58,001 nt of DNA from NCBI GenBank assembly GCA_026990045.1, contig JALSIK010000281.1, positions 1-58,001 of the forward strand, written 5' to 3'. A model generated the notes under the pieces. That model saw nothing but the letters and a program-made list of their open reading frames with translations, searched no databases and was not told the origin of the DNA. The stretch is from Chromatiales bacterium. Lineage in GTDB: Bacteria > Pseudomonadota > Gammaproteobacteria > CAMYNG01. A program made the position numbers and the translations under genes. This document shows positions 3,738 to 40,977 of this stretch, one piece after another (the first letter of the stretch is position 1; each line of letters begins with the position of its first letter).

Positions 3738-4193
3738 ATGGATACCCAGACAAGCAGGATTGCCGGTTTCCGGCCGCACCCGGAATTCGTCACCCTGATT
3801 CAGACCGTCTACGAGTGCGGCCACGCCTACAGCAGCCAGCTGTCCCGTTTCCAGATCCCGGAAGACGGCGCCATCCGCTGCGTCAAGTGCGTCACCGGCA
3901 TGCCCCCGGACGTGGAGGGCGAGGAGTTCGCCCGCGTGTGCAACCAGGGCCTGGCGGATCACCCGGTCATCGGCCGCCTGGCCCGCGCCCTGCGCTACCA
4001 CATGAACCTGACGGAGAAACAGTGCCTGATGGCGGACGCCGCCCGGCCGGAAGTGGAGGAGGCCATTTACGAGGCGCGGGCGGTGCTGGAGGCGGTGGGC
4101 CTGGGCTTCGATCCCATGGGTGCCGGGGCGGGCACGGCCGGTGACGCGGCGGCGGCCGGCAACTATCCCCTGCCGGATTTGTCTCTCTTGTAG
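3738..4193 (+). CDS. hypothetical Cys/His-motif protein, paralogue A
   Basis: ATG at 3738 after AGGGAG. N-terminal RIAGFRPHPEFVTLIQTVYECGH..RCVKCVTGMPPD is clearly paralogous to CDS 4513..4962. Confidence 0.6.
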   Translation: MDTQTSRIAGFRPHPEFVTLIQTVYECGHAYSSQLSRFQIPEDGAIRCVKCVTGMPPDVEGEEFARVCNQGLADHPVIGRLARALRYHMNLTEKQCLMADAARPEVEEAIYEARAVLEAVGLGFDPMGAGAGTAGDAAAAGNYPLPDLSLL

Positions 4194-4220
4194 TAAGGTT
4201 GGCACGGGGAGGTGCAGGCC

Positions 4221-4502
4221 ATGATCAACGAGAGACGGCGGATGCGGCGTATCCAGTTCCCGCGTCCCGTGCGGGTGGCGGGTGCCCGGGGCGAGCGGTG
4301 GTCGGCCCGGGGGGTGGATTTCTGCCTCGACGGCATCGGCCTGGAGGCTGCCCGCGAGGCCGCTGTGGGCGAGGAAGTGAGCGTCATCTTCAACCTCGCC
4401 CGGCCCGGGGGCCGGGCGCGCACGGTCCAGGCCCGCGGCCGGGTGGCCCACTGCGAGCGGCACGGTGCGGCGTACGTGCTGGGTGTCCAGTTCCGGCACT
4501 GA
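4221..4502 (+). CDS. PilZ domain protein (putative c-di-GMP receptor)
   Basis: RRRMR matches the RxxxR motif and DFCLDG matches D-x-(S/A-like)-x-x-G, at the right spacing for a PilZ beta-barrel. ATG at 4221 lies 8 nt after GGAGG; the track start is the GTG at 4212. Confidence 0.7.
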   Translation: MINERRRMRRIQFPRPVRVAGARGERWSARGVDFCLDGIGLEAAREAAVGEEVSVIFNLARPGGRARTVQARGRVAHCERHGAAYVLGVQFRH

Positions 4503-4512
4503 GCGCGCGCCC

Positions 4513-4962
4513 ATGACCCAGCGCCGTATCCTGGGCTACCGGCCCCACCCCGCGTTCAAGACCCTGACCCAGGAAATCTACGAGTGCGGGCACGTGCGCA
4601 GCGCGCCCACCCGCGAGCTGGAGCACGCCCAGGGGCAGCGCCGGCGGTGCATCAAGTGCAGCCGCGGAATGCCGCCCGATCTCTCGCCCGAGGAAATGGC
4701 CCTCCTGCGCCCGGTCCAGAACGAGGCTCCCCTGCTGGCCCGCCTGTGCCGGGCGCTGGCGTTCCATCTCAACGAGACCGAGAGCATGCGGCGCCGGTAT
4801 GGCGGCGAGTTGCCCGAGGTGGACGCCGCCATCCTCGAGGCCCATGAGGCCCTGCGCCAGGCGGGTTACCGCGTCCAGGCCGCACCCCTGCCGCGCCGCG
4901 AGCGCGGGGCGGCGGAGCCGGCAGGTGCGGCGAGTCGGCGCAGGGGGGCAGGCGGGGATTGA
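4513..4962 (+). CDS. hypothetical Cys/His-motif protein, paralogue B
   Basis: ATG at 4513, 10 nt after the PilZ stop. RILGYRPHPAFKTLTQEIYECGH..RRCIKCSRGMPPD aligns with paralogue A. The last ~25 codons and the stop lie inside repeat copy 4886..4962. Confidence 0.6.
   Translation: MTQRRILGYRPHPAFKTLTQEIYECGHVRSAPTRELEHAQGQRRRCIKCSRGMPPDLSPEEMALLRPVQNEAPLLARLCRALAFHLNETESMRRRYGGELPEVDAAILEAHEALRQAGYRVQAAPLPRRERGAAEPAGAASRRRGAGGD
4886..4962. repeat. 77-nt repeat, copy 1 (contains the CCGCGC/GCGCGG hairpin)
   Basis: Direct comparison with 5016..5091 gives 75 identical positions, one mismatch and one 1-nt indel. Confidence 0.9.
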
Positions 4963-5015
4963 GGTTCTGGAGGCCGGGGGCGGTCCGGGAGACTCGCTGG
5001 GGAGAAGGGTTTGGG

Positions 5016-5091
5016 CCCTGCCGCGCCGCGAGCGCGGGGCGGCGGAGCCGGCAGGTGCGGCGAGTCGGCGCAGGGGGCAGGCGAGGATTGA
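5016..5091. repeat. 76-nt repeat, copy 2 (intergenic)
   Basis: Same sequence as 4886..4962, offset by 130 nt, in the convergent gap before the stop of CDS 5122..6321. Confidence 0.9.
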
Positions 5092-5121
5092 TTTTTTGGG
5101 CCGGGCGGCGGGTTCCCGGGC

Positions 5122-6321
5122 TCAGGGCGGGGCTTCTTCCACGTCCACCTCGAATTCCACCCGGTTGTTGCGCCGCGCGATGCGGTTCCAGGTCCCGGCG
5201 GTGGTCCGCGGATCCACCGGCGGATAGGACAGGCGCGGGGAGTCGTCCCCGTGCAGCCGGATTTCGGCCTGCAGGCGCCCGCCCGAGGACTCGGGCAGCG
5301 CCGCCAGGAACTCGGCGAAGGCCACGGACATGGCCTGGGCCCGCGTCAGCCGCGGGGGCGCGGCCAGGGCGTCCGGGTCGCAGTCGGTGGCGGGAGCCGT
5401 TTCCGCGGCCGGGACCAGGGTGCCGCCGGGCGTGCGCCGGAGGCAGAAGCGACCCTGGTGGACGTGAATCAGGATGCGGCCATGGAGGCCGGCCGCGGCG
5501 AGCCGGTGGGCCAGCTCGCGCAGGGTCTCCAGGCGTTCGCCGTCCAGGGGAACCTCTCCCCAGGCGTAGAGGCCGCTGGTACGCAGGGCCCAGGTGAGGG
5601 CGCGGCCCAGGCGGGCGGTGGCCGGCGGGACCGGCGCGCCGCGACCGGAAGCGGCCTGCTCCAGGCGCTGCGCCAGCTCGCTCACGGTGCGTGCAGCCCG
5701 TTCCACCTCCAGCCGCTGGCTCTCGGTGGCCTCACGGTAGAGGTGGTGGACCCACCAGGGCAGCGCCACGGCCAGGACGGCGGCGAGGACCAGCGCGGTC
5801 CGGGCGGGACGGGATGCGGCCGGGGCGGGCACCGGTGCCGGCCCGGACCCGGGGGTGGCGGGGGTCCCGGTTGTGGGGGCAGCCACCGGCTCGTTGGCAG
5901 GGGCCAGGTGGGACAGGGAAGGCGCGCGCACCGGCTGCGGGCGGGGCTCGTCGAACAGGTGCAGCGCCCGCAGGTTCTCGGCCAGTTCCTCCGGACCCAC
6001 TTCCTTGGGCAGGACGGCCGCCGCCCCCAGGGCCCGGGCCTGGGCCACGTACTCCTCGTTCTGCTTGGAAGTGTACATGAGCACCGGGATGGCGCCGGTG
6101 ACGGGATCGGCCTTGATGCTGCGCAAGGCCTCCAGTCCGTCCATGCCCGGCATCATGTGGTCGAGGAAGATGACGTCGGGGCGGTGGCGGCGCAGGTACT
6201 CCATGGCCGCCTCGGCCGAGTCGGCGGCGTCGAATGCCAGGCCCAGCTGCTGCAGCAAGCGGCCCAGGGCGAGCCGGGCCACCCGGGAATCGTCGACGAT
6301 GAGCGCGAGGCGCTGGGCCAT
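5122..6321 (-). CDS. response-regulator receiver fused to a TM segment and an OmpA-C-like domain
   Basis: N-terminal CheY-like receiver (LIVDDS..VIFLDHMMPGMDG..VLMYTSK). Pro/Ala linker, then a hydrophobic segment (ALVLAAVLAVALPWWV). The C-terminus ends ..NRIARRNNRVEFEV, like the OmpA/MotB peptidoglycan-binding signature. Confidence 0.8.
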   Translation of the reverse strand: MAQRLALIVDDSRVARLALGRLLQQLGLAFDAADSAEAAMEYLRRHRPDVIFLDHMMPGMDGLEALRSIKADPVTGAIPVLMYTSKQNEEYVAQARALGAAAVLPKEVGPEELAENLRALHLFDEPRPQPVRAPSLSHLAPANEPVAAPTTGTPATPGSGPAPVPAPAASRPARTALVLAAVLAVALPWWVHHLYREATESQRLEVERAARTVSELAQRLEQAASGRGAPVPPATARLGRALTWALRTSGLYAWGEVPLDGERLETLRELAHRLAAAGLHGRILIHVHQGRFCLRRTPGGTLVPAAETAPATDCDPDALAAPPRLTRAQAMSVAFAEFLAALPESSGGRLQAEIRLHGDDSPRLSYPPVDPRTTAGTWNRIARRNNRVEFEVDVEEAPP

Positions 6322-6405: not shown

Positions 6406-7182
6406 TCAGTCGCGGAGCCACCTGATTTCCCGCGCCGTGGCCTCGCCCACCACGCAATGGTGCAGGGTGGGAGGCATGACCGCCCGGCTGGCCGAGACCG
6501 GGATGCGCCCGCCCATGATCTCGGCGAAGCGCTGGGGATGGCGGGGCTCGCGCGCCGGCTCGGCGTAGCCGTCTGGCCAGCGGGGCTGGCCGCCGGGCAG
6601 GTACTTGTCGGTGGCGCCCAGGGTGTGGAGGATCTCGTGGGCGATGACCACGTTGTTGGTCTCGGCGTGGCGGCGGCCGGCGAAGGCGTTGACCACGCCG
6701 ATGAGCCCCTTTTCCAGCCCCAGGGAGTGGGCCAGGCGCCGGACGTGGGTCGGGTCGTGGTAGACCACGAACACCCGGATGTCCGGCGCAGGTCCGGGGA
6801 AGTTGTCGGCCCGCCAGGCCCACCAGCGCAGGTGCAGGCTCCACGGCATGACCCGCCAGGGGGCGGGGTCGGCCGGCGGGGGCGGCGGCAGGGTGTCCAC
6901 CTCCGGCGCCAGCTCCACCCGCAACGGGGTGTCGATGTCCACCTCCCAGGCCCGGGCCTCGTCGGCGAAGAACTGCTCCAGGGCCGCGAAGCGGCGCCGC
7001 GTCAGGCTCCGGATGTAGGCCGCGGTGGTGGGCCGGCCGTCACCGTTGATGGGGTAGATCACCACCCACAGGGCCGCGTCCCAGTCGGTGGTGCGCAGGC
7101 GGGTGAGCCAGGTGCTGGCGGCCACGATGGCCAGGGTGGCCAGCAGCACGAAGATGCGGAGCAGGCGGAACAGTCGGCGCAC
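6406..7182 (-). CDS. membrane-anchored putative zinc metallopeptidase (HExxH)
   Basis: N-terminal TM (LLRIFVLLATLAIVAAS) and the HEILH motif in ..NNVVIAHEILHTLGATDKY... Confidence 0.65.
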   Translation of the reverse strand: MRRLFRLLRIFVLLATLAIVAASTWLTRLRTTDWDAALWVVIYPINGDGRPTTAAYIRSLTRRRFAALEQFFADEARAWEVDIDTPLRVELAPEVDTLPPPPPADPAPWRVMPWSLHLRWWAWRADNFPGPAPDIRVFVVYHDPTHVRRLAHSLGLEKGLIGVVNAFAGRRHAETNNVVIAHEILHTLGATDKYLPGGQPRWPDGYAEPAREPRHPQRFAEIMGGRIPVSASRAVMPPTLHHCVVGEATAREIRWLRD

Positions 7183-10287: not shown

Positions 10288-11712
10288 ATGGCCCAGGTGA
10301 CCTGCAAATACCATCCGGAGCGCCCGGCGGTGTGGCACTGCGAGTCCTGCCGCATCCATTTCTGCCTGGCCTGCGTCACCAGCCCGGACCGGGAGGCGGA
10401 TCCGGTCTGCCCGGTGTGCAGCCGGACGCTGGCGCGGCTGGGGGCCAGTAATCTCATCAAGCCCTTCTGGCAGGACATCTGGCGGTTCTACCGTTATCCC
10501 CTGGCCCCGGCGCCCCTGGTGTTCATGGTGGCGCTGGCGGCGATCAATGCAGCGGTGGGGTGGCTGCTGCCGGCCATCGAGTTCATCGTGCCCATCCTGC
10601 TGGTCATCGTGTTCATCAAGTACGCCTACGTGGCCCTGGAACAGACCGCGCAAGGCCACATGGCCCCGCCGCCGGTGGACGTGGACACCCTCACCGACGA
10701 GCTGGAGCTGCCGTTCAAGCAGATCTTCCTGGTCTTCGCCCTGTTCACCGCCAACATGCTGGCCTACGACGCCGGCGGGGTGACGGCCTTCGCCCCGGTG
10801 CTGGTGCTGTCGGTGCTGGCGTTGCCGGCCGGCGTCATGATCCTGGCCACCGAGCACAGCTTCCTGCACGCCCTCAACCCGCTGACCCTGTGGCGGTTCA
10901 CCCGCGCCATGGGGTCGCCGTACCTGATCCTGTGCGGTTTCCTGCTCCTGCTGCTGGCCGCCTTTGCCACTGCCGCCGAGATCATGATGCGCTTCGCGCC
11001 GCCGGTGCTCACCACCTTCATGATCTCGCTGCTGGCCATGTACTTCCTGCTCATCATGTTTCACCTCATGGGCTATGCCATCTACCAGTACCACGAGGAC
11101 CTCAGCTACGAGGTGGTGGTGGCGGCGCACGAGCAGGAGGAGGCGGGGGACGCCGAGCCGGCCAATCCGGTCCTGGCCCAGGTGGAGATCCTGCTCAGCG
11201 AGGGGCGCATGGAAGCGGCAGCAGAGCGGCTCGCCGAGCTGGCCCGGCAGGCGCCCGGGGATCTCGACGTGCGCGAGCGTTACCACCGCCTGCTGCTGGC
11301 GCGCGGAGACGCCGCCGCCCTGACCGCCCACGCCGAGGACTACCTGGCCCGGCTGCTGCGCGAGCGCCGTGCCGCCCAGGCCATCACGGCGTACATGGAC
11401 TGCCAGCGCCTGGATCCGCAGTGGCGCCCGGATGACGCCCGCGTGCGCATCCAGCTCGCGCAGCTCCTGCGCCACGGCAGCCACGGGCGCGTGGCCCTGC
11501 GGCTGCTCAACCAGTTCCACCGCGATTTTCCGCGCCACCCGCTCATTCCCGAGGCCTACCTGCTGGCGGCCCAGATCATGTGCGAGAACTTCGGCGAGGA
11601 CGACAAGGCGCGCCAGATCCTCGGGTTCCTGCAGCAGCACCATGCCGACAGCCCGCACATGGCCGAGGTCCGGCGCTACCTCCAGGTCATCGACAAGGTG
11701 CGCCAGGCCTGA
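10288..11712 (+). CDS. zinc-ribbon / multi-pass membrane / TPR-like protein
   Basis: N-terminal Cys clusters CKYH..HCESC..CLAC..CPVC, about six hydrophobic segments, and a C-terminal helical-repeat region. Confidence 0.7.
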   Translation: MAQVTCKYHPERPAVWHCESCRIHFCLACVTSPDREADPVCPVCSRTLARLGASNLIKPFWQDIWRFYRYPLAPAPLVFMVALAAINAAVGWLLPAIEFIVPILLVIVFIKYAYVALEQTAQGHMAPPPVDVDTLTDELELPFKQIFLVFALFTANMLAYDAGGVTAFAPVLVLSVLALPAGVMILATEHSFLHALNPLTLWRFTRAMGSPYLILCGFLLLLLAAFATAAEIMMRFAPPVLTTFMISLLAMYFLLIMFHLMGYAIYQYHEDLSYEVVVAAHEQEEAGDAEPANPVLAQVEILLSEGRMEAAAERLAELARQAPGDLDVRERYHRLLLARGDAAALTAHAEDYLARLLRERRAAQAITAYMDCQRLDPQWRPDDARVRIQLAQLLRHGSHGRVALRLLNQFHRDFPRHPLIPEAYLLAAQIMCENFGEDDKARQILGFLQQHHADSPHMAEVRRYLQVIDKVRQA

Positions 11713-13205: not shown

Positions 13206-13293
13206 CTCACCCGGTGAAGCATAGCGCGGGACCGGCGGCAACGGAGACCCCGAGCCCGCCCGCGACGGCCGTACCGCTGCCCGATGCACGATT

Positions 13294-13309
13294 TGTGACA
13301 GGTTTCACA
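13294..13309. promoter_or_regulatory. perfect CRP/Vfr-type palindrome TGTGA-caggtt-TCACA
   Basis: Read directly. Lies in the divergent region, 89 nt from the rhomboid start and 108 nt from the cNMP-protein start. Confidence 0.6.
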
Positions 13310-13416
13310 CTTGGCGGCTGTCGGTTTCCGCGCACGGGACGACATTGTGGGCTAGAGTGAATGCGGTGGGGCCGGACGCCCCACCCGCACTTTTCCGAGG
13401 AGGGCCCGGGGAAATC

Positions 13417-14343
13417 ATGGCCGAACATGCCGGAGCTGCCCTTGCCGGGGGCGAGATGAGCGGGGCCGGGGTGCCTTTCGGCCATCTGTTGTCCGCCGAG
13501 GATCGCCGCCGTCTCATGGCCGCCGGCCGCGTGCGCAGCGTGGCGGCGGGGGCGACCCTGTGCCGCCGCAACGAGGTGGACGGGCGCGCGTTCATCATCG
13601 TCCTCGGCGAGGTGGAGGTGGTGGAGCAGGCGGGCGGCCGGCGGACGGTGCTGGCCCGGCTGCGCCGGGGCGAGCTGTTCGGCGAGATCGCGGCCCTGTT
13701 CGGCCTTCCCCGGGTGACCGACGTGGTGGTGAGCCGCCCCGCGGTGCTGCTGGAAATCGACGGCCGCGCCCTGGACGAGCTCATCATCGCCCGCAGCCGG
13801 TTGCGCCACGCCATCATGCAGCGCTGCCGCCACCGGATCACGGCCACGGCGCTGCGGACCGTGGCCCCGTTCCGGGACCTGCCGCCCCCCGCCCGCGAGC
13901 GGCTGGCGGCCGGTGCGGCCTGGGTCACCTTCGCGCCCGGTCGTGACATCGTCCGCGAAGGGGAGGCGGGGGATGGACTTTACGTCATGTTGTTCGGGGC
14001 CGCCCGGGTCACGGTCCCCGGCCCGGAGGCGCCGGTGAACCTGGCCCTGCTGCGCCCCGGCGAGTACTTCGGCGAATGGGCGGTGCTCACCGGCGCGCCG
14101 CGCGCGGCCACGGTGACGGCCGTCACCCAGGTGGAGGCGCTGCGGGTGGAGCGCGAGACGTTCCTCGCCCTGGCCGACGAGCATCCCGAGGTGAAGATGC
14201 AGGTGGAGGCCCTGTGCCGGCGCCGGCACGAGGCACTGCTCTACAGCGGCCGCCATCCGGGCGCCGCGCGCACCGCGCACCGGCTCCTGGCCAGCATCGA
14301 GCAGGTGGTGTCGGGGCAGCGCCGCCACCTGTACGGCCTGTAG
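13417..14343 (+). CDS. protein with two cyclic-nucleotide-binding (CAP-effector) domains
   Basis: Two copies of the cNMP-binding pattern (..RRGELFGEIAALFGLPRVTDVV.. and ..RPGEYFGEWAVLTGAPRAATVTA..). No DNA-binding or catalytic domain is evident. Confidence 0.8.
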   Translation: MAEHAGAALAGGEMSGAGVPFGHLLSAEDRRRLMAAGRVRSVAAGATLCRRNEVDGRAFIIVLGEVEVVEQAGGRRTVLARLRRGELFGEIAALFGLPRVTDVVVSRPAVLLEIDGRALDELIIARSRLRHAIMQRCRHRITATALRTVAPFRDLPPPARERLAAGAAWVTFAPGRDIVREGEAGDGLYVMLFGAARVTVPGPEAPVNLALLRPGEYFGEWAVLTGAPRAATVTAVTQVEALRVERETFLALADEHPEVKMQVEALCRRRHEALLYSGRHPGAARTAHRLLASIEQVVSGQRRHLYGL

Positions 14344-18734: not shown

Positions 18735-20102
18735 CTACGCACACAACGCAGCGACGATCTCCTTCAGCGCCTGGTCCTGGGTCAGGACCTCGTCGGTGAG
18801 GGTGAGCACGGCCTCCTCTTCCAGTCCCAGCGCCCCGAGCAGCGCCGGCGGCAGCTCCTCGCTGTCGGCGTCGGACAGATCGTGGGCCTTGAGCAGCCGG
18901 TCTGCCAGCAGCACGATCTGGACGTAGCGCAGGTGGTCCCCGCGATAATCGATGTCGTGGTGATGGCGTACCGCGGCAGTGACTTCTCCGGGCATCTTCC
19001 ACGCCTTCATGAGCAGCTCGCCCAGCTCCGTGTGTTCCACGCCCAGGAGCTGGTGCTCCAGCTGTCGCAGCGGCACCTCCGGCCGGACCGTGGCCACCTT
19101 GGTCAGCCAGAAGAACTCGCTGGGAAAGAGCTGGTGCAGGACCATGTAGCCCAGATCGTGCAGCAGGCCGGCCAGGTACGCGGTACCCGGCTTGACGTCC
19201 AGCTCCCGCGGGACCGCCTCCCCCAGGCGCTGGGCCAGGGTGGCCGTGTAGGTGGCGTGTACCCAGAACCGCTCCCGCCCCAGGGGACCGCTGGCCGGCA
19301 TGGCGCAGTGGCCGGCCAGGGCCAGGCCCAGCGCCAGGTTGACCACGTTCTCGAACCCCAGCACCCGGAACACCGCGTCCTCGATGGACTTGATGTTGCC
19401 GGACTGGCCGAAGAAGGCCGAGTTGGCGTAGCGCACCACCTGCGCGGCCAGCGCCGGGTCCTCCGCCACCACCTCGCTGAGCTGGGCCACGGTGGTGTCG
19501 GGGTCGTTGCGCATGTGCAGGATCCGGGCCGCCAGGTGGGGCATGGGCGGGAGCTGGTCGAGTCGCTTGACCGCGGCGCGCAGGTCCAGCCGCGGCATCT
19601 CCCCCGAGGCCGTGGGCGGTGGGACGTCCTCGCCCCGCGGATCGGAGATGGAGCTGCCGATGAGCAGGTGATCGGCCAGGAGCTGGACGTGGGCGGCGTC
19701 GAACCGGATGAGCCCCGAGTTGTCGGGGCTCAGGAAGTGGATGTGATCCTGGTCGCTGAGCATCACGTCCACGATGATCTGGGGGTTGCACAGGTCGCCC
19801 ACGGTTTCCGGCGTGGCCGATTCGCAGGCGGCCAGCAGGGCAGCGCGCCGGTCCGGATCCATGGGGGCCAGGTGCCGGTGCAGGAGCTTGTTGAGCCGGT
19901 CCAGGTTGAGCACGCGGCTGGCCGGAAAGATGGGCAGGACCAGGCCGGCCTCGTCCTCCAGCAGCTCCAGCGTGGCCAGGTTCTCCATGGCCACGGTGCG
20001 GGTGAGCCACTGGCCGCTGGCGGTGCGGCCGGGGGCGGTGATGGTGGAATAGGGGATGTTCTGCTTCTCCAGCAGCAGCTTGATGAGACTGGTGATTGCC
20101 AT
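18735..20102 (-). CDS. YbaK/aminoacyl-tRNA-deacylase-like domain fused to an HDOD domain
   Basis: ATG at 20102 after AAGGA. The C-terminal half carries HDOD-type sequence (..LPPMPHLAARILHMRNDPDTTVAQLSEVVAEDPALAAQVVRYANSAFFG..IKSIEDAVFRVLGFENV..). The N-terminal ~150 aa resemble YbaK/ProX-type deacylases. Confidence 0.75.
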   Translation of the reverse strand: MAITSLIKLLLEKQNIPYSTITAPGRTASGQWLTRTVAMENLATLELLEDEAGLVLPIFPASRVLNLDRLNKLLHRHLAPMDPDRRAALLAACESATPETVGDLCNPQIIVDVMLSDQDHIHFLSPDNSGLIRFDAAHVQLLADHLLIGSSISDPRGEDVPPPTASGEMPRLDLRAAVKRLDQLPPMPHLAARILHMRNDPDTTVAQLSEVVAEDPALAAQVVRYANSAFFGQSGNIKSIEDAVFRVLGFENVVNLALGLALAGHCAMPASGPLGRERFWVHATYTATLAQRLGEAVPRELDVKPGTAYLAGLLHDLGYMVLHQLFPSEFFWLTKVATVRPEVPLRQLEHQLLGVEHTELGELLMKAWKMPGEVTAAVRHHHDIDYRGDHLRYVQIVLLADRLLKAHDLSDADSEELPPALLGALGLEEEAVLTLTDEVLTQDQALKEIVAALCA

Positions 20103-20370
20103 GTGACGTCCTTTGGTTCTTATTGTTTTTACTTGGGAAAGACACCGAAACCGTGCCCGGGTTCCGGTTTCCACCCATGCCTTATATAAAGATATACCAT
20201 GGCGATGGGGGACGCTACCAGCCGTCCCCGCCGCTGGGGCGCGGTGGCCCCGCCCGCGAACCCCGGGCGCGCCGGCGAAGATTCGGGGACGCCCCCGGTC
20301 CCCGTCCTGTTAGGATTATGATGGAGCCCGGGGCGGCGACCGCCGTCCCCCACCGGAACAGCGAGGCCAC

Positions 20371-33282: not shown

Positions 33283-33298
33283 TGTGAGCCCACTCACA
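33283..33298. promoter_or_regulatory. perfect CRP/Vfr-type palindrome TGTGA-gcccac-TCACA
   Basis: Read directly, 122 nt upstream of the ATG at 33420. Its spacer is nearly identical to that of site 33216..33231. Confidence 0.65.
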
Positions 33299-33419
33299 CA
33301 TTCCCCGCCGCGGCATCCACCGCCCGCCGGCGGGGACGATATGGGCACACGGACGCCGGGGCGTGGCCACGACACGCCGCACGGTGAACCCGGGAACCAA
33401 CGGAAAGCAGGCGGCCACC

Positions 33420-34307
33420 ATGAACGACAAGCCCGTGTACGCGGTGCGGCTGGAAAATGTCGCCGACAGCGAGCGCATCATCTTCAAGCTGATCTTTTCC
33501 GTCTCCCGCAACAGCCCCAGCCGGCCCCACGGCTACGCGCTGGCGGAGGCGGGGACGGCGGACATCGTCATCGGCCCGGAGCCGGCCGCCGCCGGCGGCG
33601 CCCGGGTGCTGCCCCTGCGCGATGCCGGCGACGGCCGCGGGCCCGGCCTGGTGCGGCCCCTCATCGCCAGCCGGGTGCTGGCGGCGCTGGATGCGCTGGT
33701 CGCCGCGCCGGCGGCGGAGGATGCCGGGGCAGACGCGGGATCGGCCGCCCCGGACGCCGCCCCGGTGGTGGAGTTCAGCATCAGCGAGGAAGAGGCCTCG
33801 GAGCTGGCCATCGTCCACGACGAGAGCCTGTCCAACCCGGCCAACGAGGCCGCGGAGGCGCCCGCCGATGCCGCACCCGCGGCCACCGTGCATCCCCTGC
33901 CGGGTGCGAAGGAGGCGCCGCGGCCGCGGGCCCTGGTGGTGGACGACAGCGCCTCGGTGCGCAAGCAGCTCGAGCTGGAGCTGGACCTGTTCGAGGTGGA
34001 GGTGGACTACGCCGCCGGCGGCGAGGAGGCGCGCGGCCACCTCGCCGCCCGCCGCTACGACGTGGCCTTTCTCGACGTGGTGATGCCGGACGCCGACGGC
34101 TTCGACCTGTGCAAGGCCATCAAGGCCGCCTCGCCCGCCACCCGCGTCATCATGCTCACCGGCAAGGCGACCCAGGCGGACAAGATCAAGGGCACCCTGG
34201 CCGGTTGCGACGCCTACCTGGTGAAGCCGGTGGGGCGCGAGATGTTTCAGTCCACGGTGCGCAGGTTCCTGCAGTTGCGGCAGGCCCGCAGCGCCATGGG
34301 CGCGTGA
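33420..34307 (+). CDS. response regulator, PilG-position, with N-terminal pseudo-receiver and acidic/Ala-rich linker
   Basis: C-terminal canonical receiver (ALVVDDS..VAFLDVVMPDADG..VIMLTGK..AYLVKP). The N-terminal ~100 aa are receiver-like but lack the acidic pocket. Start uncertain (track start 33363). Confidence 0.75.
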   Translation: MNDKPVYAVRLENVADSERIIFKLIFSVSRNSPSRPHGYALAEAGTADIVIGPEPAAAGGARVLPLRDAGDGRGPGLVRPLIASRVLAALDALVAAPAAEDAGADAGSAAPDAAPVVEFSISEEEASELAIVHDESLSNPANEAAEAPADAAPAATVHPLPGAKEAPRPRALVVDDSASVRKQLELELDLFEVEVDYAAGGEEARGHLAARRYDVAFLDVVMPDADGFDLCKAIKAASPATRVIMLTGKATQADKIKGTLAGCDAYLVKPVGREMFQSTVRRFLQLRQARSAMGA

Positions 34308-34343
34308 ACCGGAGCAACGACGAGGCACGAGGAGGAGAGACAC

Positions 34344-34709
34344 ATGGCCATCAACAAGGTGCTCGTGGTGGACGACTCGCCGGCGGAGCTGTCGGCCATC
34401 CGCAACATCGTGGCCGACACCGGCTGCATGGTCATCGCCGCCACCAACGGCCGCGAGGCGGTGGAGCTGGCGCGGCGCGAGTCGCCGGACATCATCTTCA
34501 TGGACATCATCATGCCGGAGATGGACGGCTACGAGGCCACGCGCCGGCTGGCCAACGATCCCGCCACCCGCGACATCCCCATCATCTTCGTCAGCAGCAA
34601 GAACCAGAAGGCGGACAAGATCTGGGGCCAGATGCAGGGCGGCAAGGGCTACATCACCAAGCCCTTCGAGCCGGCCCAGATCGTCGAGCATCTCAAGGCC
34701 CTGGGCTGA
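34344..34709 (+). CDS. single-domain CheY-like response regulator (PilH position)
   Basis: VLVVDDS..IIFMDIIMPEMDG..IIFVSSK..GYITKP. GAGGAGGAG RBS. Confidence 0.9.
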   Translation: MAINKVLVVDDSPAELSAIRNIVADTGCMVIAATNGREAVELARRESPDIIFMDIIMPEMDGYEATRRLANDPATRDIPIIFVSSKNQKADKIWGQMQGGKGYITKPFEPAQIVEHLKALG

Positions 34710-34719
34710 GGCGGCGCCC

Positions 34720-35262
34720 ATGACCGGTGACGTCACCGACGCCGAGGCCCTGCTGGCCCGGCCCGGGGACGCGGCCCCGGGCGCAGGCCTGCGCTACGGC
34801 TACCGGCTCGGCGGCCTGGCCCTGCTGGTGGAGGCCGGCCTCAAGAGCGAGGTGACGGCGGCCGCGCGCCTGTGCCCGGTCCCGCGCACCCCGCCGGCCC
34901 TGGCCGGGCTCATCAACGTGCGCGGCAACATCGTGCCGGTGTTCGACCTGGAGCAGGCCCTGGGCCTGCCGCCGCCGGAGCAGGCGCCGGAGCACGTGCT
35001 GGTGCTGGGCGAGGGCGAGGCCGCCGCGGGGGTGCGCATCGCCCGCCTGCCCGAGTCGGTGCGGCTGGCCGCACCGGCGCCGGCCCAGCCGCCGCCGGCG
35101 CTGGCCGGGTACGCCGGCGAGGCCTGGCACGATGCCGGCGGCACCCTGTGGTGGGCCCTGGACCACCGGGCCTGTTTCCGGCACCTGCAGCGCCAACTCA
35201 GCGGGCTGGCCCCCGGCGGGCCGCCCCCCCATCCGGCCGCGGCGACCGCGGCCTCCGCCTGA
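34720..35262 (+). CDS. CheW-like coupling protein (PilI position)
   Basis: ..PPALAGLINVRGNIVPVFDLEQALGL.. is typical of CheW. Confidence 0.8.
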   Translation: MTGDVTDAEALLARPGDAAPGAGLRYGYRLGGLALLVEAGLKSEVTAAARLCPVPRTPPALAGLINVRGNIVPVFDLEQALGLPPPEQAPEHVLVLGEGEAAAGVRIARLPESVRLAAPAPAQPPPALAGYAGEAWHDAGGTLWWALDHRACFRHLQRQLSGLAPGGPPPHPAAATAASA

Positions 35263-35280
35263 TCCCGGGAGGACACCTCC

Positions 35281-37149
35281 ATGCTCAACCGACTCAAGAT
35301 CGCCACCCGGCTGGTGGTCCTCATCGCGGTCCAGATCACGGTGCTGGGCCTGGTGGGCGCCGTGGCCATCACCGCGCTCAACAACGCCTTCAACACCACC
35401 GCCCTGCTCAACACCAGTGTCATCGAGCAGGTGAAACTCAACCAGCTCAACGAGACCGTGCGCGGCGACCTGCTGGAGACGGTCAACCGCGCGGCCGCGG
35501 GCAAGCTGTCCTGGGAGGCGCTGGACGAGGCCCTGCTGGCGGCACGCAACCTGTTCGTCAACAACTGGGACGAGTACAGGGAGGAGAAGACCCCGGAGCA
35601 GGTGCGTGACATCGAGGCCTCGCTGGGGGCGGAGTACCAGGCGGTGCTCGCGGCCTTCGACCGCCTGCGCGGGTTCCAGGCCGCGCGGGACCGCGAGGGA
35701 CTGGCCGCCTTCGCGGAGGGCGAGCTGCCGCGCATGGTCAACCCCTTCCTGCTGGAGCTCAACGAGCGGGTGGCCGAGCAGCAGCTCGCCTCCGAGGCGC
35801 TGTTCGAGAGCTCCCTGCGCGAGGGCCGGCTGGCCCTGTGGGGTGCCGCCGGCGTGGTGGTGGTGGGCCTGCTGGTGGCGGGCCTGCTGGGTTATCTCAT
35901 CTACCTGGGCATCAACCGCTCCATCCGGCGCATCCAGGCCACGGTGGCGGAGGTGTCCGAGGGCAACTACTACGCCCGCACCGGCCTCACCGGCACCGAC
36001 GAGCTGGCCGAGCTGGGCGGGGCCTTCGACGCCCTGCTCGAGGACAAGGTGGCCAGCCTGGTCCGGGCGGAACAGGAGAACGAGCGCCTCAACGAATCGG
36101 TCATCGCCCTGCTGGAGGCGGTGTCCCGGCTCAGCCAGCGCGACCTCACCGTCAAGGTGCCGGTGACCGAGGACGTGACCGGCCCGGTGGCCGACGCCCT
36201 GAACCAGCTCACCGGCGAGACCTCGCGCGTGCTCCAGGGCGTGCGCCGCATCTCGGAGGAGGTGGCCCGGGCCTCGGCCATGGTCAAGGCCCAGTCGGAC
36301 AACGTCATCGCGGTGGCGGCCGAGGAACGGCGCGAAGTGGAGGAGACCGCCCGCGAGCTGGCCCACGCGGTGGAGACCATGGCCCACATCGCCGCCCTGG
36401 CGGAGGAGTGCGACCGGGCCGCGGAGCAGGCCATCCGCACCACCCACACCGCGCTGGAGACCGTGACCCGCACGGTGGAGGGCATCAACGGCATCCGCGA
36501 GACCATCCACGAGACGGAAAAGCGCATCAAGCGCCTGGGCGAGCGCTCGCAGGAGATCAGCCGCGCGGTGAACCTCATCAACAGCATCTCCGAGCGCACC
36601 CACATCCTCGCCCTCAACGCCTCCATGCACGCCGCCTCCGCCGGCGAGGCCGGCAAGAGCTTCGCCGTGGTGGCGGACGAGGTGCAGCGCCTGGCGGAGA
36701 GCGCGCGCGACGCCACCGCCCAGATCTCCACCCTGGTGTCCAACATCCAGGTGGAGACCGCCGACACCGTGGCCACCATGAACGAGGTGATCACCCAGGT
36801 GGTGGAAGGCACCCGCCTGGCGCAGGAGGCGGGCCAGCAGATGCAGCGCACCGAGGAGAGCACCGCCGGCCTGGTGGAGGCGGTGCGTCGCATCAACGAG
36901 CGCTCGCAGGACCAGGCTCGGCTGTCCAATGCCCTGCAGGGGCGCGCCGGCCAGATCCAGGAGAGCACGCGCAAGACCAGCCAGCAGCTCCAGGAGCAGA
37001 CCCAGCAGACCACCCGCCTGGTGGAGTACGCCCGCGGCCTGCTCAACGCGGTCAACGTCTTTCGCCTGCCCGAGGGCGATGCGGCCCCGGGGCTGGCCCC
37101 GCTGGCCCCGGCCCCGGCGGGCGGCGAGCTGGAGAAAAAGGCCTCCTGA
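35281..37149 (+). CDS. methyl-accepting chemotaxis protein, PilJ-like
   Basis: Two TM segments around a helical periplasmic domain, then HAMP. The signalling-domain hairpin is ..RTHILALNASMHAASAGEAGKSFAVVADEVQRLAE... The post-HAMP segment ..DLTVKVPVTEDVTGPVADALNQL.. resembles pilus-class MCPs as I recall them. Confidence 0.85.
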   Translation: MLNRLKIATRLVVLIAVQITVLGLVGAVAITALNNAFNTTALLNTSVIEQVKLNQLNETVRGDLLETVNRAAAGKLSWEALDEALLAARNLFVNNWDEYREEKTPEQVRDIEASLGAEYQAVLAAFDRLRGFQAARDREGLAAFAEGELPRMVNPFLLELNERVAEQQLASEALFESSLREGRLALWGAAGVVVVGLLVAGLLGYLIYLGINRSIRRIQATVAEVSEGNYYARTGLTGTDELAELGGAFDALLEDKVASLVRAEQENERLNESVIALLEAVSRLSQRDLTVKVPVTEDVTGPVADALNQLTGETSRVLQGVRRISEEVARASAMVKAQSDNVIAVAAEERREVEETARELAHAVETMAHIAALAEECDRAAEQAIRTTHTALETVTRTVEGINGIRETIHETEKRIKRLGERSQEISRAVNLINSISERTHILALNASMHAASAGEAGKSFAVVADEVQRLAESARDATAQISTLVSNIQVETADTVATMNEVITQVVEGTRLAQEAGQQMQRTEESTAGLVEAVRRINERSQDQARLSNALQGRAGQIQESTRKTSQQLQEQTQQTTRLVEYARGLLNAVNVFRLPEGDAAPGLAPLAPAPAGGELEKKAS

Positions 37150-37155
37150 TCCCCC

Positions 37156-40100
37156 ATGGCGATCCCGGTGGAACAGCGCAGCTCCCTGGAGCTGGAGGTG
37201 AGCGGGGTGGTGGCCGAGATGCTGGAGGCCTTCGCCGCCACCGGTGACGGCGGGGCCGATGCCGCCGCCAGCGGCGATGCCCTGGCGCGCTACCAGCGGC
37301 GGGTGGCCCGCATCGGCATGGCCGCCGGCCGTTTCGGGCTCACCGGGCTGCAGGACACCTGCGTGGAGCTGCAGGACCGGCTGCGCGCGCTCAAGCGCCG
37401 CGGCACCGGCCTCAGCGCCGAAGAACGGGAGCTGCTGGAGGAATGGCCGCTGCTGGTGATGGGGTACATCAACGCCCCCCACGACCCGGCCGCGGCGCAG
37501 GCACTGGTGGACTTTCTCCAGCGGCCCGCCTGGGGCGAGCCGGTCTCGCCCGAGACCGGGGCCGAGATCCGCAGCGCGCTGGGCAGCGACCCGGCCCTGC
37601 CGGCACCGCCCGCGGCCGGCGACGACCCGCCCCGAGACGATGCCACCGGGCACGATGCCGGGCCCGCCGGCGACGGCACCGGCGGCCTGGCCGGCCTGGG
37701 CGGGCCCCTGCGGGAGGAAGTGGAGGAGGCCATGGGCGACTGCCTGCTCCGGCTGGCCGAACCCGGGGTGGCGCCGGAGGAGGCCCGGGCGGCGCTGACC
37801 CATTGCGCCGAGCGCCTGGAGCTCCTGGCCATGACGGCGGCCACCGCCGGCCTGGCCGGTTTCATGGACGCCTGCCAGATCTTCCAGGCCGGCCTGCGGC
37901 GCCTGGCCGCCGCCGGCCGCGTGCCGGCGACGGAGGAGCTGGACGCCCTCTACCGGTGGGCGGGCCTGGTGGGGGCCTGGCTGGAGGCGCCGCACGACGC
38001 CGGGCGGGCCGAGGCCCTGGTGGACTTTCTCCAGGCCCTGCCCTGGGGCGAGCCGGTGGACGCAGAGCAGGCCGCCATCCTGCGCGGGCTGCTGGCACCC
38101 GAGGAGATCCACATCGACGCCCCGGCCGGCGGGCCGGAGGCGGCGGGCGGGGCCGGCGAAGAACCGCCGGAGATCCCGCCGGCCTACCGCGAGCTGGTGG
38201 GGCTGCTGCGCATGGAGCTGGAGCAGTCGCAGCCGGAACTGGAGTCCGCCCTGGCCGCCGCCGCCGGCGACGACATCCCGGCCGGGGACCGTCATGCCGC
38301 CTGGCGCCAGGTCCTGGATCGGCTGGAGCGCTTCGCCGGCGCCGCCGCCACCCTGGGCCTGCACGGCCTGGCCGAGGCCTGCGGGCACGTCCATGCCTGT
38401 GCCGAGTTCATCGACGCCACCGGCGAGCCGCTGGCGCCGGCGCAGCACCGCTGGTTTGCGGACTGGCCCCGGCGGGCGCGCGCCTACCTGGAGACGCTGG
38501 TGGACCCGGCCGCCTGCACCGCCCTGGCGGACTACCTGGGCGAGGCGGACTGGGGCTGTGCACCCGATGCCGCCGCGCGCGAGCGGCTGGTGCAGTCCCT
38601 GGCCCGGCCCGAGGTGGCGCTGGAAGAAGAGGAACTGGCGCCGCGCCAGGCCGAGGCCCGCGCCGAGGACGTCTCCCTGGCCCTGCCCGACGACGTCAAC
38701 CCGCAGCTGCTGGACAGCCTGCTCCAGGAGCTGCCCCACTACACCGCCGATTTCTCCGCCAGCATCACGCGCCTGGCGGAGGGCGCCGGCACCCGGGCGG
38801 ACGTGGAGACCGCCCAGCGCATCGCCCACACCCTCAAGGGCTCGGCCAACACCGTGGGCGTGGCGGGACTGGCCAACCTCACCCACCACATGGAGGACAT
38901 CCTCGAGGCCCATGCCCGCGCCGGGCGCCTGCCCCCGGCGCCCCTGGTGCGGGTGCTGCAGAGCGCCGCCGACGTGCTGGAGATGATGAGCGAGGCCCTG
39001 CTGGGGCAGGGCGAGGCCCCGGCCCATGCCCGCGAGGTGCTGCAGGAGGTGCTGGACTGGGCCAACCGCATGGACCTGGAAGGGGTGCCGGAGGATGCGC
39101 CCGCCGCCCCGGAGCCGGAGCCCGCCCCGGCGGCGGAGTCCCCGGCGGCGGAGGCCGGCCCGGTGCTGCGCATTCCCGCCCGCCTGGTGGACGAGCTGCT
39201 GCGGCGGGTGGGCGAGTCCCTCATCGTCACCGCCCAGCTCCGCGAGCGCCTGGGCCGGGCGGCGGCGGAGCTGGCGGGCCTGCGCGAGCGCAACGAGCTG
39301 CTGGGACGCCTGACCCAGGAGCTGGAGCAACTGGTGGACGTGCAGGGGATCCACGCCGGACGCGGCCGCGAGGCCGGCGGCGAGTTCGATGCCCTGGAGC
39401 TGGAGCAGTACAACGCCCTGCACACCGTCACCCACCGCCTGGTGGAGGCGGTGGCCGACAGTCGCGAGATGGGCCAGGGCATGGAGGAGCAGCTCGGGGC
39501 CTTCGACGGCCTGCTGGCGGACCAGTCGCGGCTGCAGAAGGAGACCGAGGAGCTGGTCATGGAGACCCGCATGGTGCCGGTGCAGAACCTGGTCCCGCGG
39601 CTGCAGCGGGCGGTGCGCCAGGCCTGCCGCCTCACCGGGCGCGACGCGGTGCTGGAGGTGTCGGGCGCCGACACCCTCATCGACGCCCAGGTCCTGGACC
39701 AGCTCGCCGATCCCCTCCTGCACGTGCTGCGCAACGCGGTGGACCACGGCATCGAGCCGCCGGACCGGCGGGCCGCCGCCGGCAAGCCGGAGCGGGGCCG
39801 CATCCGCCTGGCGTTCCGGCGCGAGGGCGACCACATGGTGGTGTGCTGCGAGGACGACGGCGCCGGCCTCGACCGCGAGGCCATCCTGCGCCGGGCCCGC
39901 GCCCGCGGCCTGGTGGGCGCGGACGAGACGCCGGCCGACGAGGTGCTCGACGCCCTGGTGCTGGTGCCCGGCTTCTCCACCCGCGAGGAGGTCTCCCAGG
40001 TGTCCGGCCGCGGCGTGGGCATGGACGTGGTCAACACCCGCGTGCGGGAGATGAAGGGCACCCTGCGCCTGCACTCGGAGCCGGGCCGCGGCTGCCGGGT

Positions 40101-40977
40101 GGAGATGCGCCTGCCGCTCACCCTCATCTCGGTCCATGCCCTGCTGGTGGGGGCGGGGGCCGGCCGCGTGGCCCTGTCCAGCCGCGGGGTGGAGCGCATC
40201 GTCTATGGCGGCGACGGCCGCTGGGAGGCCGGCGCGGACGGCGCGCAGTACTGCCTGGGTGACGAGTGCCACGCCGCCTTCGAGCTGGAGGCCCTGCTGG
40301 GCCTGCCCGCGCCGGCGGCGGACGGCGAACCGCGGCCGGTGCTGCTGGTGCGCGATCACGGCGGCCTGCTGCGGGCGGTGCGGGTGGCCCGGGTGCTGGC
40401 CAGCCAGGACCTGGTGGTGAAGCAGATGGGCCCGTACATGCCACGGGTGCCCGGCCTCGACGGCGCCACCATCCTCGGCGACGGCACCGTGGCCCCGGTG
40501 CTGGACCTGCCGGCGGTGCTGGCCGCGGCGCGCAGCGACGGCCTGCCCGCGGCGGCGCCGGCGGCGGCGGAGGCCGCCGCCCCGCCGCGGGCCCTGGTGG
40601 TGGACGACTCCCTGTCCGCCCGCCGCAGCCTGGCCCAGTTCGTGGCCGACCTGGGTTACGAGGTGCATACCGCCCGCGACGGGCTGGAGGCCATCGAGCT
40701 GCTGGGCCGGGTGCAGCCGGAGCTGCTGCTGGTGGACCTGGAGATGCCGCGCATGAACGGCCTCGAGCTCACCGCCCACGTGCGCGCCGACGACGCCCAC
40801 CGCCACCTGCCGGTGATCATGATCACCTCGCGTTCCACCGACAAGCACCGGCGCCAGGCCGAGCGCGCGGGGGTGGACCGCTATCTCACCAAGCCCTTTT
40901 CCGAAGACGAACTGCTGGGCCACATCGCCACGCTGGCCGCGCGGCCGCCGGCCCGGCTCCATGCAGGAGGACCGTGA
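37156..40977 (+). CDS. ChpA/PilL-like hybrid CheA kinase (degenerate Hpt-like repeats, Hpt, HATPase, CheW, receiver)
   Basis: Canonical Hpt AHTLKGSANTVG (His codon at 38827-38829). Kinase boxes ..HVLRNAVDHGIE.., ..DDGAGLD.., ..GRGVGMDVV... A CheW-like segment, then a C-terminal receiver (ALVVDDS..LLLVDLEMPRMNG..VIMITSR..RYLTKP). Confidence 0.9.
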   Translation: MAIPVEQRSSLELEVSGVVAEMLEAFAATGDGGADAAASGDALARYQRRVARIGMAAGRFGLTGLQDTCVELQDRLRALKRRGTGLSAEERELLEEWPLLVMGYINAPHDPAAAQALVDFLQRPAWGEPVSPETGAEIRSALGSDPALPAPPAAGDDPPRDDATGHDAGPAGDGTGGLAGLGGPLREEVEEAMGDCLLRLAEPGVAPEEARAALTHCAERLELLAMTAATAGLAGFMDACQIFQAGLRRLAAAGRVPATEELDALYRWAGLVGAWLEAPHDAGRAEALVDFLQALPWGEPVDAEQAAILRGLLAPEEIHIDAPAGGPEAAGGAGEEPPEIPPAYRELVGLLRMELEQSQPELESALAAAAGDDIPAGDRHAAWRQVLDRLERFAGAAATLGLHGLAEACGHVHACAEFIDATGEPLAPAQHRWFADWPRRARAYLETLVDPAACTALADYLGEADWGCAPDAAARERLVQSLARPEVALEEEELAPRQAEARAEDVSLALPDDVNPQLLDSLLQELPHYTADFSASITRLAEGAGTRADVETAQRIAHTLKGSANTVGVAGLANLTHHMEDILEAHARAGRLPPAPLVRVLQSAADVLEMMSEALLGQGEAPAHAREVLQEVLDWANRMDLEGVPEDAPAAPEPEPAPAAESPAAEAGPVLRIPARLVDELLRRVGESLIVTAQLRERLGRAAAELAGLRERNELLGRLTQELEQLVDVQGIHAGRGREAGGEFDALELEQYNALHTVTHRLVEAVADSREMGQGMEEQLGAFDGLLADQSRLQKETEELVMETRMVPVQNLVPRLQRAVRQACRLTGRDAVLEVSGADTLIDAQVLDQLADPLLHVLRNAVDHGIEPPDRRAAAGKPERGRIRLAFRREGDHMVVCCEDDGAGLDREAILRRARARGLVGADETPADEVLDALVLVPGFSTREEVSQVSGRGVGMDVVNTRVREMKGTLRLHSEPGRGCRVEMRLPLTLISVHALLVGAGAGRVALSSRGVERIVYGGDGRWEAGADGAQYCLGDECHAAFELEALLGLPAPAADGEPRPVLLVRDHGGLLRAVRVARVLASQDLVVKQMGPYMPRVPGLDGATILGDGTVAPVLDLPAVLAAARSDGLPAAAPAAAEAAAPPRALVVDDSLSARRSLAQFVADLGYEVHTARDGLEAIELLGRVQPELLLVDLEMPRMNGLELTAHVRADDAHRHLPVIMITSRSTDKHRRQAERAGVDRYLTKPFSEDELLGHIATLAARPPARLHAGGP

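Follow-up and report, generated by a model that had tools for sequence, protein, structure and literature searches.

Two ancient paralogues built from phage-related mini-domains flank a stand-alone PilZ gene in a candidate c-di-GMP signalling operon

The window analysed here is the whole of a 58,001-nucleotide stretch (72% GC) of contig JALSIK010000281.1, from the Chromatiales bacterium assembly GCA_026990045.1. It carries three small adjacent genes: a gene for a stand-alone PilZ domain protein and, on either side of it, two paralogous genes which are here called A and C (Table 1). On the basis of the observations described below, our preferred though tentative reading is that the trio is a vertically inherited three-gene operon, consisting of a stand-alone PilZ receptor for cyclic di-GMP (c-di-GMP) and two ancient paralogues, whose products form a PilZ/A/C complex controlled by c-di-GMP.

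The trio was picked out in an original prediction, made by a model from the DNA letters alone. That prediction described the genes as co-directional with gaps of 27 and 10 nt, and the analysis bears it out on open reading frame (ORF) coordinates, lengths, gaps and motifs without exception. It also described the outer proteins as paralogues, and this is confirmed by an identity of 42% over 115 residues (E 1e-28, far above chance). The motifs quoted for A and C are present, namely RPHP and YECGH, then after 17 or 16 residues RCxKC, and GMPPD. The GC content at third codon positions (GC3) is 0.88–0.89 in gene A, the PilZ gene and gene C alike. The ratio of nonsynonymous to synonymous substitution (dN/dS, Nei-Gojobori method) between the window and its closest relative, L005, is 0.12 for A, 0.15 for PilZ and 0.11 for C, and an independent pair, L002 and L007, gives 0.13, 0.11 and 0.12 (here and below, L numbers denote homologous loci or contigs compared with the window). 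Given this GC3 and these dN/dS values of 0.11–0.15 across all three genes, A, PilZ and C are real coding genes under purifying selection, and the coding signatures whose absence would have counted against the original prediction are in place. The orthologues of A have 48–88% identity to the protein in the window.

The order A-PilZ-C is found in six divergent lineages: the window, L005/L020, L001/L006, L002/L003/L008, L007 and L021. The intergenic gaps measured in these lineages are 10–37 nt, save one of 131 nt in L001, and synonymous sites are at or near saturation between most of them (synonymous divergence, dS, 0.9–3.0). In a seventh genome, the complete metagenome-assembled genome (MAG) chromosome CP070733 (L010), the genes run PilZ-X-Y, with the response regulator known from the window next in line, and the adjacency to PilZ has thus survived a rearrangement of the gene order. 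The trio therefore behaves as a conserved unit, in keeping with the cassette proposed in the original prediction, and co-occurrence with PilZ, which it proposed to check, is seen for seven of seven sets of paired paralogues and for none of three single copies (L011, L012 and L013). One of the single copies is a third paralogue in CP070733, standing isolated at L012. In two Thioalkalispiraceae MAGs a single copy lies between htpG and another gene, presumably bolA-like from inspection by eye only, with no PilZ gene nearby. Of the genes flanking the trio, two are constant on its downstream side, one for a 258-residue membrane protein with a HExxH motif and one for an AAA ATPase. Two others, a Sel1-repeat gene upstream and the response regulator gene downstream, occur in some trio lineages only.

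A neighbour-joining tree separates A and C into clean clades with matching internal branching. Since the two clades are congruent, the trees place the A/C duplication before the divergence of the lineages, with both copies kept ever since. Only a few uncultivated lineages, of the Chromatiales/Ectothiorhodospiraceae type, carry the operon, and full-length members of the A/C family number only about 20 among 15 billion proteins. A word-indexed search of 5.8 billion clusters gave six A-type and five C-type proteins, and an exhaustive HMMER profile search of 1.84 billion representatives gave 32 proteins at E ≤ 1e-3, only seven of them full length. A scan of 185,579 species genomes gave nine loci, whose MAGs are labelled Chromatiales, Ectothiorhodospiraceae, Thioalkalispiraceae, Gammaproteobacteria or Pseudomonadota, with the exception of one short contig binned as Krumholzibacteriia. 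The A-type protein encoded on that contig (L009, JALUJS010000383.1, Candidatus Krumholzibacteriia) has exactly the sequence of its counterpart in the Gammaproteobacteria MAG HyVt-448, and so the assignment is probably a binning error. A scan of JGI metagenomes added one further trio and one gene for a free-standing N-terminal domain, a type of protein described below.

A separate observation concerns CP070733. Positions 5523-5597 of L010 and 6453-6527 of L012 share a leader of about 75 nt together with the first codons (ATGTATAC), with four mismatches only. In L010 this is the start of the PilZ gene, and in L012 it is the start of a multihaem cytochrome gene directly 3' of the isolated third paralogue. 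A stretch of 100 masked N borders each copy on one side. The shared sequence may be a regulatory leader, or it may be a trace of the rearrangement that separated this paralogue from PilZ.

The middle gene is a PilZ gene, as originally predicted, and an ordinary one for that family: against Pfam PF07238 its product scores 38.5 bits over residues 4–92 (cut-off 22.5, E 1.5e-9). Translation can start at the ATG, giving 93 residues, or at an upstream GTG at 4212, giving 96; the ATG is favoured, because the orthologues begin M(V)INERRR. A Shine-Dalgarno sequence, GGGGAGG, lies 8 nt upstream. Across six orthologues, R5, R6, R7 and R10 (RRRxxR) and D33, F34 and G38 are invariant, and in view of this the receptor is probably competent to bind c-di-GMP. 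The second motif reads DFCxEG or DFSMEG in the orthologues, with the position of the canonical Ser occupied by Cys in four lineages and by Ser in two. The PilZ proteins are strongly basic, with isoelectric points (pI) of 9.8–11.6, and a sequence search of the PDB found no close solved relative of the protein in the window. The protein has no output domain of its own and must therefore signal by binding to other proteins.

The original prediction did not recognise the outer family, and it does indeed stand outside the characterised families. Neither A nor C has a match in Pfam, NCBIfam or PADLOC; PDB sequence searches with a single protein and with three profiles gave nothing significant; and when the model of A described below was compared by Foldseek with the PDB and BFVD, every match had E ≥ 0.1. 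Matches to OB-fold tRNA-binding domains in that comparison (E ≥ 0.75, TM about 0.2) were rejected as noise. Searching 85 family members against Pfam gave recurrent matches only below threshold, to DUF5752 and to the H-NS N-terminal domain (E ≥ 0.007). A literature search found no account of either the family or the operon. The family is not, however, a complete orphan, being a fusion of two small domains that have uncharacterised relatives in phages and prophages.

The two domains are most easily seen from proteins that contain only one of them. Proteins of about 75 residues match only positions 4–60 of the family profile (PLRxIVGYxxHPxYxxLxxEVxECGHxxxPxxDxYGETxAxRRRCxKCxxGxPPD), and proteins of about 70–80 residues match only positions ~71–138 (LIERLCRSLAFHLIESELTL...EARALIAEAGFDIDxLYPxxDRP). 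The hairpin domain of A is homologous to the latter, free-standing proteins of about 70 residues with the pattern LIERLCRSLAFH...EAGFDID, of which a large search with the combined alignment found some 50 more. Hidden Markov models (HMMs) were built from the free-standing proteins, without any full-length member. The N-domain model scored 68.5 bits against C and 39.5 bits against A, and the C-domain model 37.9 and 21.5 bits respectively. Since models made in this way recognise both domains in both proteins of the window, A and C are, on these scores, fusions of two mini-domains that also occur independently. At the phage loci L014–L019, free-standing N-domain and C-domain genes were not adjacent to each other, so that a Rosetta-stone test for neighbouring genes was negative.

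The Cys/His pattern that the original prediction regarded as a small metal-binding knuckle is well conserved: the four residues are invariant in all 12 of the aligned full-length members. The 18 free-standing N-domain relatives show no variation at C, G, H and RRC, and at least 90% of them retain the last Cys. The knuckle also has invariant basic residues, R12, R47 and K50, and the sequence RRRCxKC is found in the C-type and free-standing forms. AlphaFold2 run on A with a 12-sequence alignment gave a mean predicted local distance difference test (pLDDT) of 48.7; with an 85-sequence alignment that included the free-standing domain homologues, this rose to 84.9 (predicted template modelling score 0.61). 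In the better model, residues 11–60 and 81–120 have pLDDT values of about 91–96, with 86–95 in the hairpin region, and confidence is low in the linker and tail, as expected for a tethered linear motif. The predicted strands are residues 5–13, 20–25, 30–34 and 45–47, and the predicted helices are 49–52 (short), 61–67, 76–99 and 104–119. C27-x-H29 is placed in the turn between strands 2 and 3, and C48-x-x-C51 at the N-terminus of helix 49–52. This predicted arrangement is consistent with a knuckle-plus-helix (treble-clef-like) zinc site; Foldseek with the same model recovered no zinc-finger fold.

The paralogues are clearly asymmetric. C-type proteins have about 129 residues and pI values of 7.7–9.8, they retain the RRRCxKC and RLCxxLAFH sequences of the free-standing proteins, and they score above the A-type against both free-standing HMMs. 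A-type proteins are mostly acidic (pI 4.8–5.6 in five of six) and have IRC where the C-type has RRRC. They end in a hypervariable linker of 15–60 residues followed by YYELPDLSL[LVI], in which LPDLS is invariant in every A-type orthologue. The ELPDLSL[LVI] tail is missing from the C-type, and in the window and the fetched loci the complete motif was found at the end of no other ORF. The layout predicted for A, in which a disordered linker joins a folded core to an invariant terminal peptide, is typical of a tethered docking motif. The rearranged pair of CP070733 is split likewise, into an acidic tailed protein (P0014, pI 4.9, ending ...EILDEFSINYGGKS) and a basic tail-less one (P0017, pI 8.9), so that an acidic tailed and a basic tail-less copy occur in CP070733 and in all the trio lineages examined. 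The tail motif of P0014, EILDEFSIN, continues into YGGKS, and the free carboxylate is thus not conserved.

In the window, gene C is longer than its 129-residue orthologues by a lineage-specific Arg/Gly-rich C-terminal extension, which is encoded by the first copy of a tandem duplication (Table 1). The core of the duplication is 62 nt, 100% identical, and occurs exactly twice in the window, with 0 occurrences expected by chance; the same duplication is present in the closest relative, L005. The second copy is intergenic, and the T-run at its end probably marks where the operon stops. The 130-nt tandem repeat folds no better than shuffled sequence (z −0.52). Scans of the window found no Rfam family, c-di-GMP riboswitches included, and a promoter and terminator scan found no consensus sigma-70 promoter and no intrinsic terminator. 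The regions upstream of the trio have no common motif when compared across the lineages.

The free-standing relatives of both domains are found in phages or prophage-like regions. Free-standing N-domain proteins match phrog_32641, a phage family of unknown function, with E values from 1.4e-9 to 6e-6. The same family matches C of the window weakly (E 0.0031, residues 20–54) and A not at all, so that the link from A and C to phrog_32641 is a transitive one, by way of the N-domain profile scores given above. A tblastn search with a free-standing N-domain protein identified 63-residue hypothetical proteins, themselves members of phrog_32641, in the Brevibacillus phages Jenst and SecTim467, where the gene lies among small ORFs, with a helicase and RtcB on one side and replication genes and ThyX on the other. 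Another free-standing N-domain gene lies in an early region, adjoining a CI-like repressor. The SecTim467 protein (SECTIM467_156) is also the best viral Foldseek match to the model of A (probability 0.92, target-normalised TM 0.56), which independently corroborates the sequence link for the N-domain. Free-standing C-domain genes are found in prophage-like modules together with DUF5131, MT-A70 or ParB_N methylases, HNH, GapR, an N6/N4 methylase and P4 cII-like genes, and also in four IMG/VR viral contigs, in one of them directly after an MT-A70 gene. Scans of IMG/VR with two single N-domain proteins gave no match.

We therefore return to how the trio might work if our preferred reading is right. 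The helical hairpins would hold the basic C and the acidic, derived A together as a pair. The PilZ protein, which is very basic, would when loaded with c-di-GMP bind either to the A/C pair or to the tethered ELPDLSL[LVI] peptide of A, and this binding would switch the exposure of the zinc-knuckle surfaces, or of the A peptide, to a downstream target. There is a weak pointer that this target might be nucleic acid or associated with the nucleoid, because C has an Arg-rich RRRCxKC and because the phage relatives occur in DNA-methylase, GapR and replication modules. Several points weigh against this reading. Heterodimerisation, the contact between PilZ and A/C, and the output are steps that we infer, and zinc binding by A and C is deduced from a candidate site, identified in the sequence and in predicted secondary structure. 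The existence of single-copy members with no adjacent PilZ means that the family is not strictly dependent on PilZ. The synteny of the 258-residue HExxH protein and the AAA ATPase is common to all the trio lineages, and hence the conservation of the unit could in part be inheritance within one clade. Finally, the number of genomes is too small for a co-evolution analysis.

Going further, A and C could represent a new class of c-di-GMP output: a heteromeric, zinc-dependent switch made from fused and duplicated phage-derived mini-domains, controlled by PilZ, with the A peptide recruiting a cellular machine that is possibly associated with the nucleoid or with replication. We regard this as a speculative extension and on the unlikely side. 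If it were true, the free-standing phage homologues would be host-takeover factors for the same target, and a function would be assigned to two widespread families of phage genes.

Other explanations have to be weighed against this. A possible, though rather unlikely, alternative is that A and C are zinc-finger regulators that bind nucleic acid, either in transcription or as nucleoid-associated proteins, and dimerise through the hairpin, and that PilZ senses c-di-GMP and modulates their binding to DNA or RNA. By analogy this would resemble CdbS and CdbA (PMC10313047), which provide a precedent. It would suit the invariant basic residues of the knuckle and the RRRCxKC of the C-type and free-standing forms, and also the genomic surroundings of the phage relatives, amid MT-A70, N6/N4 methylases, GapR, HNH, helicase and replication genes. 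The free-standing hairpins moreover match the dimerisation domain at the N-terminus of H-NS weakly but recurrently (12 of 85 members, best E 0.01). These H-NS matches are, however, below threshold, the A-type proteins are acidic overall, the OB-fold tRNA-binding matches are at noise level, and no known DNA-binding fold was found by Pfam, PDB sequence search or Foldseek.

It is unlikely that the three genes are neighbours by descent only, with PilZ and the paralogues working in unrelated pathways and the arrangement reflecting no more than the synteny of one small clade. The family is certainly limited to a narrow group of related MAGs, the flanks (the 258-residue protein, the AAA ATPase, a rhodanese and a rhomboid) are syntenic too, and single-copy members beside htpG do without PilZ. 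Against this, the short gaps have outlasted the saturation of dS while the Sel1 and response regulator flanks vary, CP070733 has been reordered and yet keeps the adjacency to PilZ, and the paired paralogues are with PilZ in every case.

We consider it quite improbable that the trio is a domesticated phage-derived module for defence, superinfection exclusion or toxin-antitoxin-like control, with PilZ as its nucleotide sensor. In its favour are the small size of the proteins, the tight packing of the genes, and the free-standing relatives that both domains have in the early, replication and DNA-modification regions of phages and in IMG/VR contigs. However, none of the three proteins has any PADLOC match at E ≤ 1, no integrase, transposase or other mobile-element gene was seen in the flanks examined, and the chromosomal context is stable, with a congruent vertical phylogeny. 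We also know of no defence system in which PilZ acts as the sensor.

Very improbable is the proposal that the DLSL[LVI] tail of A is a sliding-clamp-binding motif (QL[SD]LF-like) or a protease- or PDZ-type degron, linking c-di-GMP to replication or to proteolysis of A: the peptide is invariant, hydrophobic and acidic, lies at the extreme C-terminus after a disordered linker, and is reminiscent both of clamp motifs of the QLSLF type and of PDZ ligands of class I (S-x-hydrophobic-COOH), a likeness that is a lead only, and a conserved neighbour is an AAA+ ATPase of the FtsH/PAN/Cdc48 clade, but a clamp-binding motif is defined by Gln at position 1, then L-[SD]-L-[FL], and all the A-type orthologues have Asp there and so do not conform to QL[SD]LF, A has no signal peptide while most bacterial PDZ proteases are periplasmic, the complete motif ends no other ORF in the sequences searched, and the CP070733 tail runs on beyond it. 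With the defining Gln absent and the terminal position unconserved in CP070733, the clamp-binding and PDZ readings were rejected.

Table 1. Features of the trio and of its surroundings, in window coordinates.
Feature	Position	Strand	Description
Gene A	3738-4193	+	ORF and translation; 151 residues, acidic (pI 4.9), the more derived paralogue; putative zinc-knuckle β domain, helical hairpin, disordered linker and conserved C-terminal peptide
A, N-terminal domain	3750-3923	+	Residues ~5-62, predicted β fold
A, candidate zinc ligands	3816-3818, 3822-3824, 3879-3881, 3888-3890	+	C27, H29, C48 and C51, respectively
A, C-terminal helical-hairpin domain	3951-4109	+	Residues ~72-124; predicted helices 76-99 and 104-119, then GLGFDP
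A, C-terminal peptide	4164-4190	+	YPLPDLSLL; family consensus YYELPDLSL[LVI]; follows a linker variable in length and sequence
PilZ gene	4221-4502	+	Stand-alone PilZ domain protein, 93 residues from the ATG, pI 11.6
PilZ, RRxxxR motif	4233-4250	+	RRRMRR, residues 5-10
PilZ, DxCxxG motif	4317-4334	+	DFCLDG, the canonical [DN]xSxxG with Cys for Ser
Gene C	4513-4962	+	149 residues, basic (pI 9.8) paralogue; two domains as in A, without the ELPDLSLL tail
Tandem duplication	4886-4970 and 5016-5099	+	GC-rich unit of ~85 nt, period 130 nt
Response regulator	5122-6321	-	399 residues
HExxH protein	6406-7182	-	258 residues
TPR membrane protein	10288-11712		474 residues
cNMP-binding protein	13225-14340		Two cNMP-binding domains
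HDOD/HD protein	18738-20309		HDOD/HD-domain protein
Chemosensory cluster	33288-40974		Pil-Chp-like

The genes near the trio include several of separate interest. The product of the response regulator gene, which is convergent with the trio, combines a receiver domain with a predicted transmembrane segment; its C-terminal region has no Pfam match and ends in NNRVEFEV, which resembles an OmpA-like motif. The gene stands beside the trio in the window, L001 and L010 and is absent in L002, L007 and L021. The 258-residue protein has an N-terminal membrane anchor and the sequence HEILH (HExxH), and no Pfam or NCBIfam match. It adjoins the trio in every lineage, CP070733 included, and may be an undescribed family of metalloproteases. 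The 474-residue membrane protein has a Cys-rich B-box-like motif at its N-terminus (below threshold in Pfam) and C-terminal tetratricopeptide (TPR) repeats; several lineages show it in synteny with the trio region, adjoining a rhomboid-TPR protein.

The window also encodes a protein with two cyclic-nucleotide-binding (cNMP-binding) domains and a HDOD/HD-domain protein. Some 29 kb from the trio is a Pil-Chp-like chemosensory cluster, consisting of two receiver-domain proteins, a methyl-accepting chemotaxis protein with a HAMP domain, and a 1275-residue Hpt-HATPase-CheW-REC kinase that resembles ChpA; no link between this cluster and the trio is established. In L001 the surroundings of the trio, within 6 kb, contain another PilZ gene together with a GGDEF-EAL gene and YajQ.

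Systems in which a stand-alone PilZ receptor works with dedicated partners have been described before. Proteins that consist of a PilZ domain alone occur commonly, but only for a few of them have partners been identified; in Pseudomonas, stand-alone PilZ proteins with dedicated partners are exemplified by MapZ with CheR1 and HapZ with SagS. Further examples are a PilZ protein with the regulator HinK (PMC10912698), CdbS, a stand-alone PilZ protein that acts with the nucleoid protein CdbA in Myxococcus (PMC10313047), and PlzC, a stand-alone PilZ receptor in Vibrio (PMC12799141). Like these, the protein described here is a single PilZ domain of about 90–100 residues with RxxxR and D-x-S/C-x-x-G intact and with no output domain. 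What differs is that the candidate partners belong to an undescribed family and are an old pair of paralogues, whose genes flank that of the receptor within one operon. Because the likely partners are encoded in the PilZ operon, the question of what PilZ binds can be tested directly with three small soluble proteins. The immediate impact is modest, the operon being taxonomically narrow and from uncultivated organisms.

Two other comparisons are with small proteins that resemble A and C in part. Receptors of the ComFB/CdgR type bind cyclic dinucleotides (c-di-NMPs), and some of them bind zinc through Cys, the site in ComFB being Cys25/27/30/88 (PMC12448109). They are likewise small cytoplasmic proteins tied to c-di-GMP signalling, but the likeness is an analogy only. 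Homology to ComFB (PF10719) was rejected, as A, C and all 85 members have no Pfam ComFB match at E ≤ 1 and the ligand pattern differs. DksA and TraR combine a C4 zinc finger with a coiled-coil hairpin, and versions of TraR are encoded by phages and plasmids. The resemblance lies in a small protein with a zinc element (a candidate one in A and C), an antiparallel helical hairpin and relatives on mobile elements. Here too homology was rejected, the domain order being reversed, the ligands CHCC and not C4, and no match being found by Pfam or Foldseek.

The closest comparison is with the phage mini-domains themselves. Like phrog_32641, the N-terminal domain of A and C has the pattern PLRxIVGY...E(V/I)xECGH...RRCxKC...PPD; unlike A and C, in which it is fused to a second domain, the phage proteins are single domains of about 60–90 residues. 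The second domain has its counterpart in an unnamed hairpin family of about 70 residues (LIERLCRSLAFHLIESELTL...EAGFDIDxLYPxxDRP), represented by QMZ05_12675 of Bradyrhizobium sp. INPA03-11B and by the four IMG/VR contigs, in which R-L-x-x-x-L-x-x-H, E and A-x-x-L-x-x-x-G-F are invariant as in A and C; these proteins differ in being free-standing, in phage-like modules and never beside PilZ. A and C thus tie both of these families to cellular signalling, and solving the operon could annotate those phage genes. In comparison with the PilZ systems described so far, what sets this one apart is that its candidate partners are themselves new, share an operon with the receptor, are paralogues of each other and have relatives among phage mini-domains.

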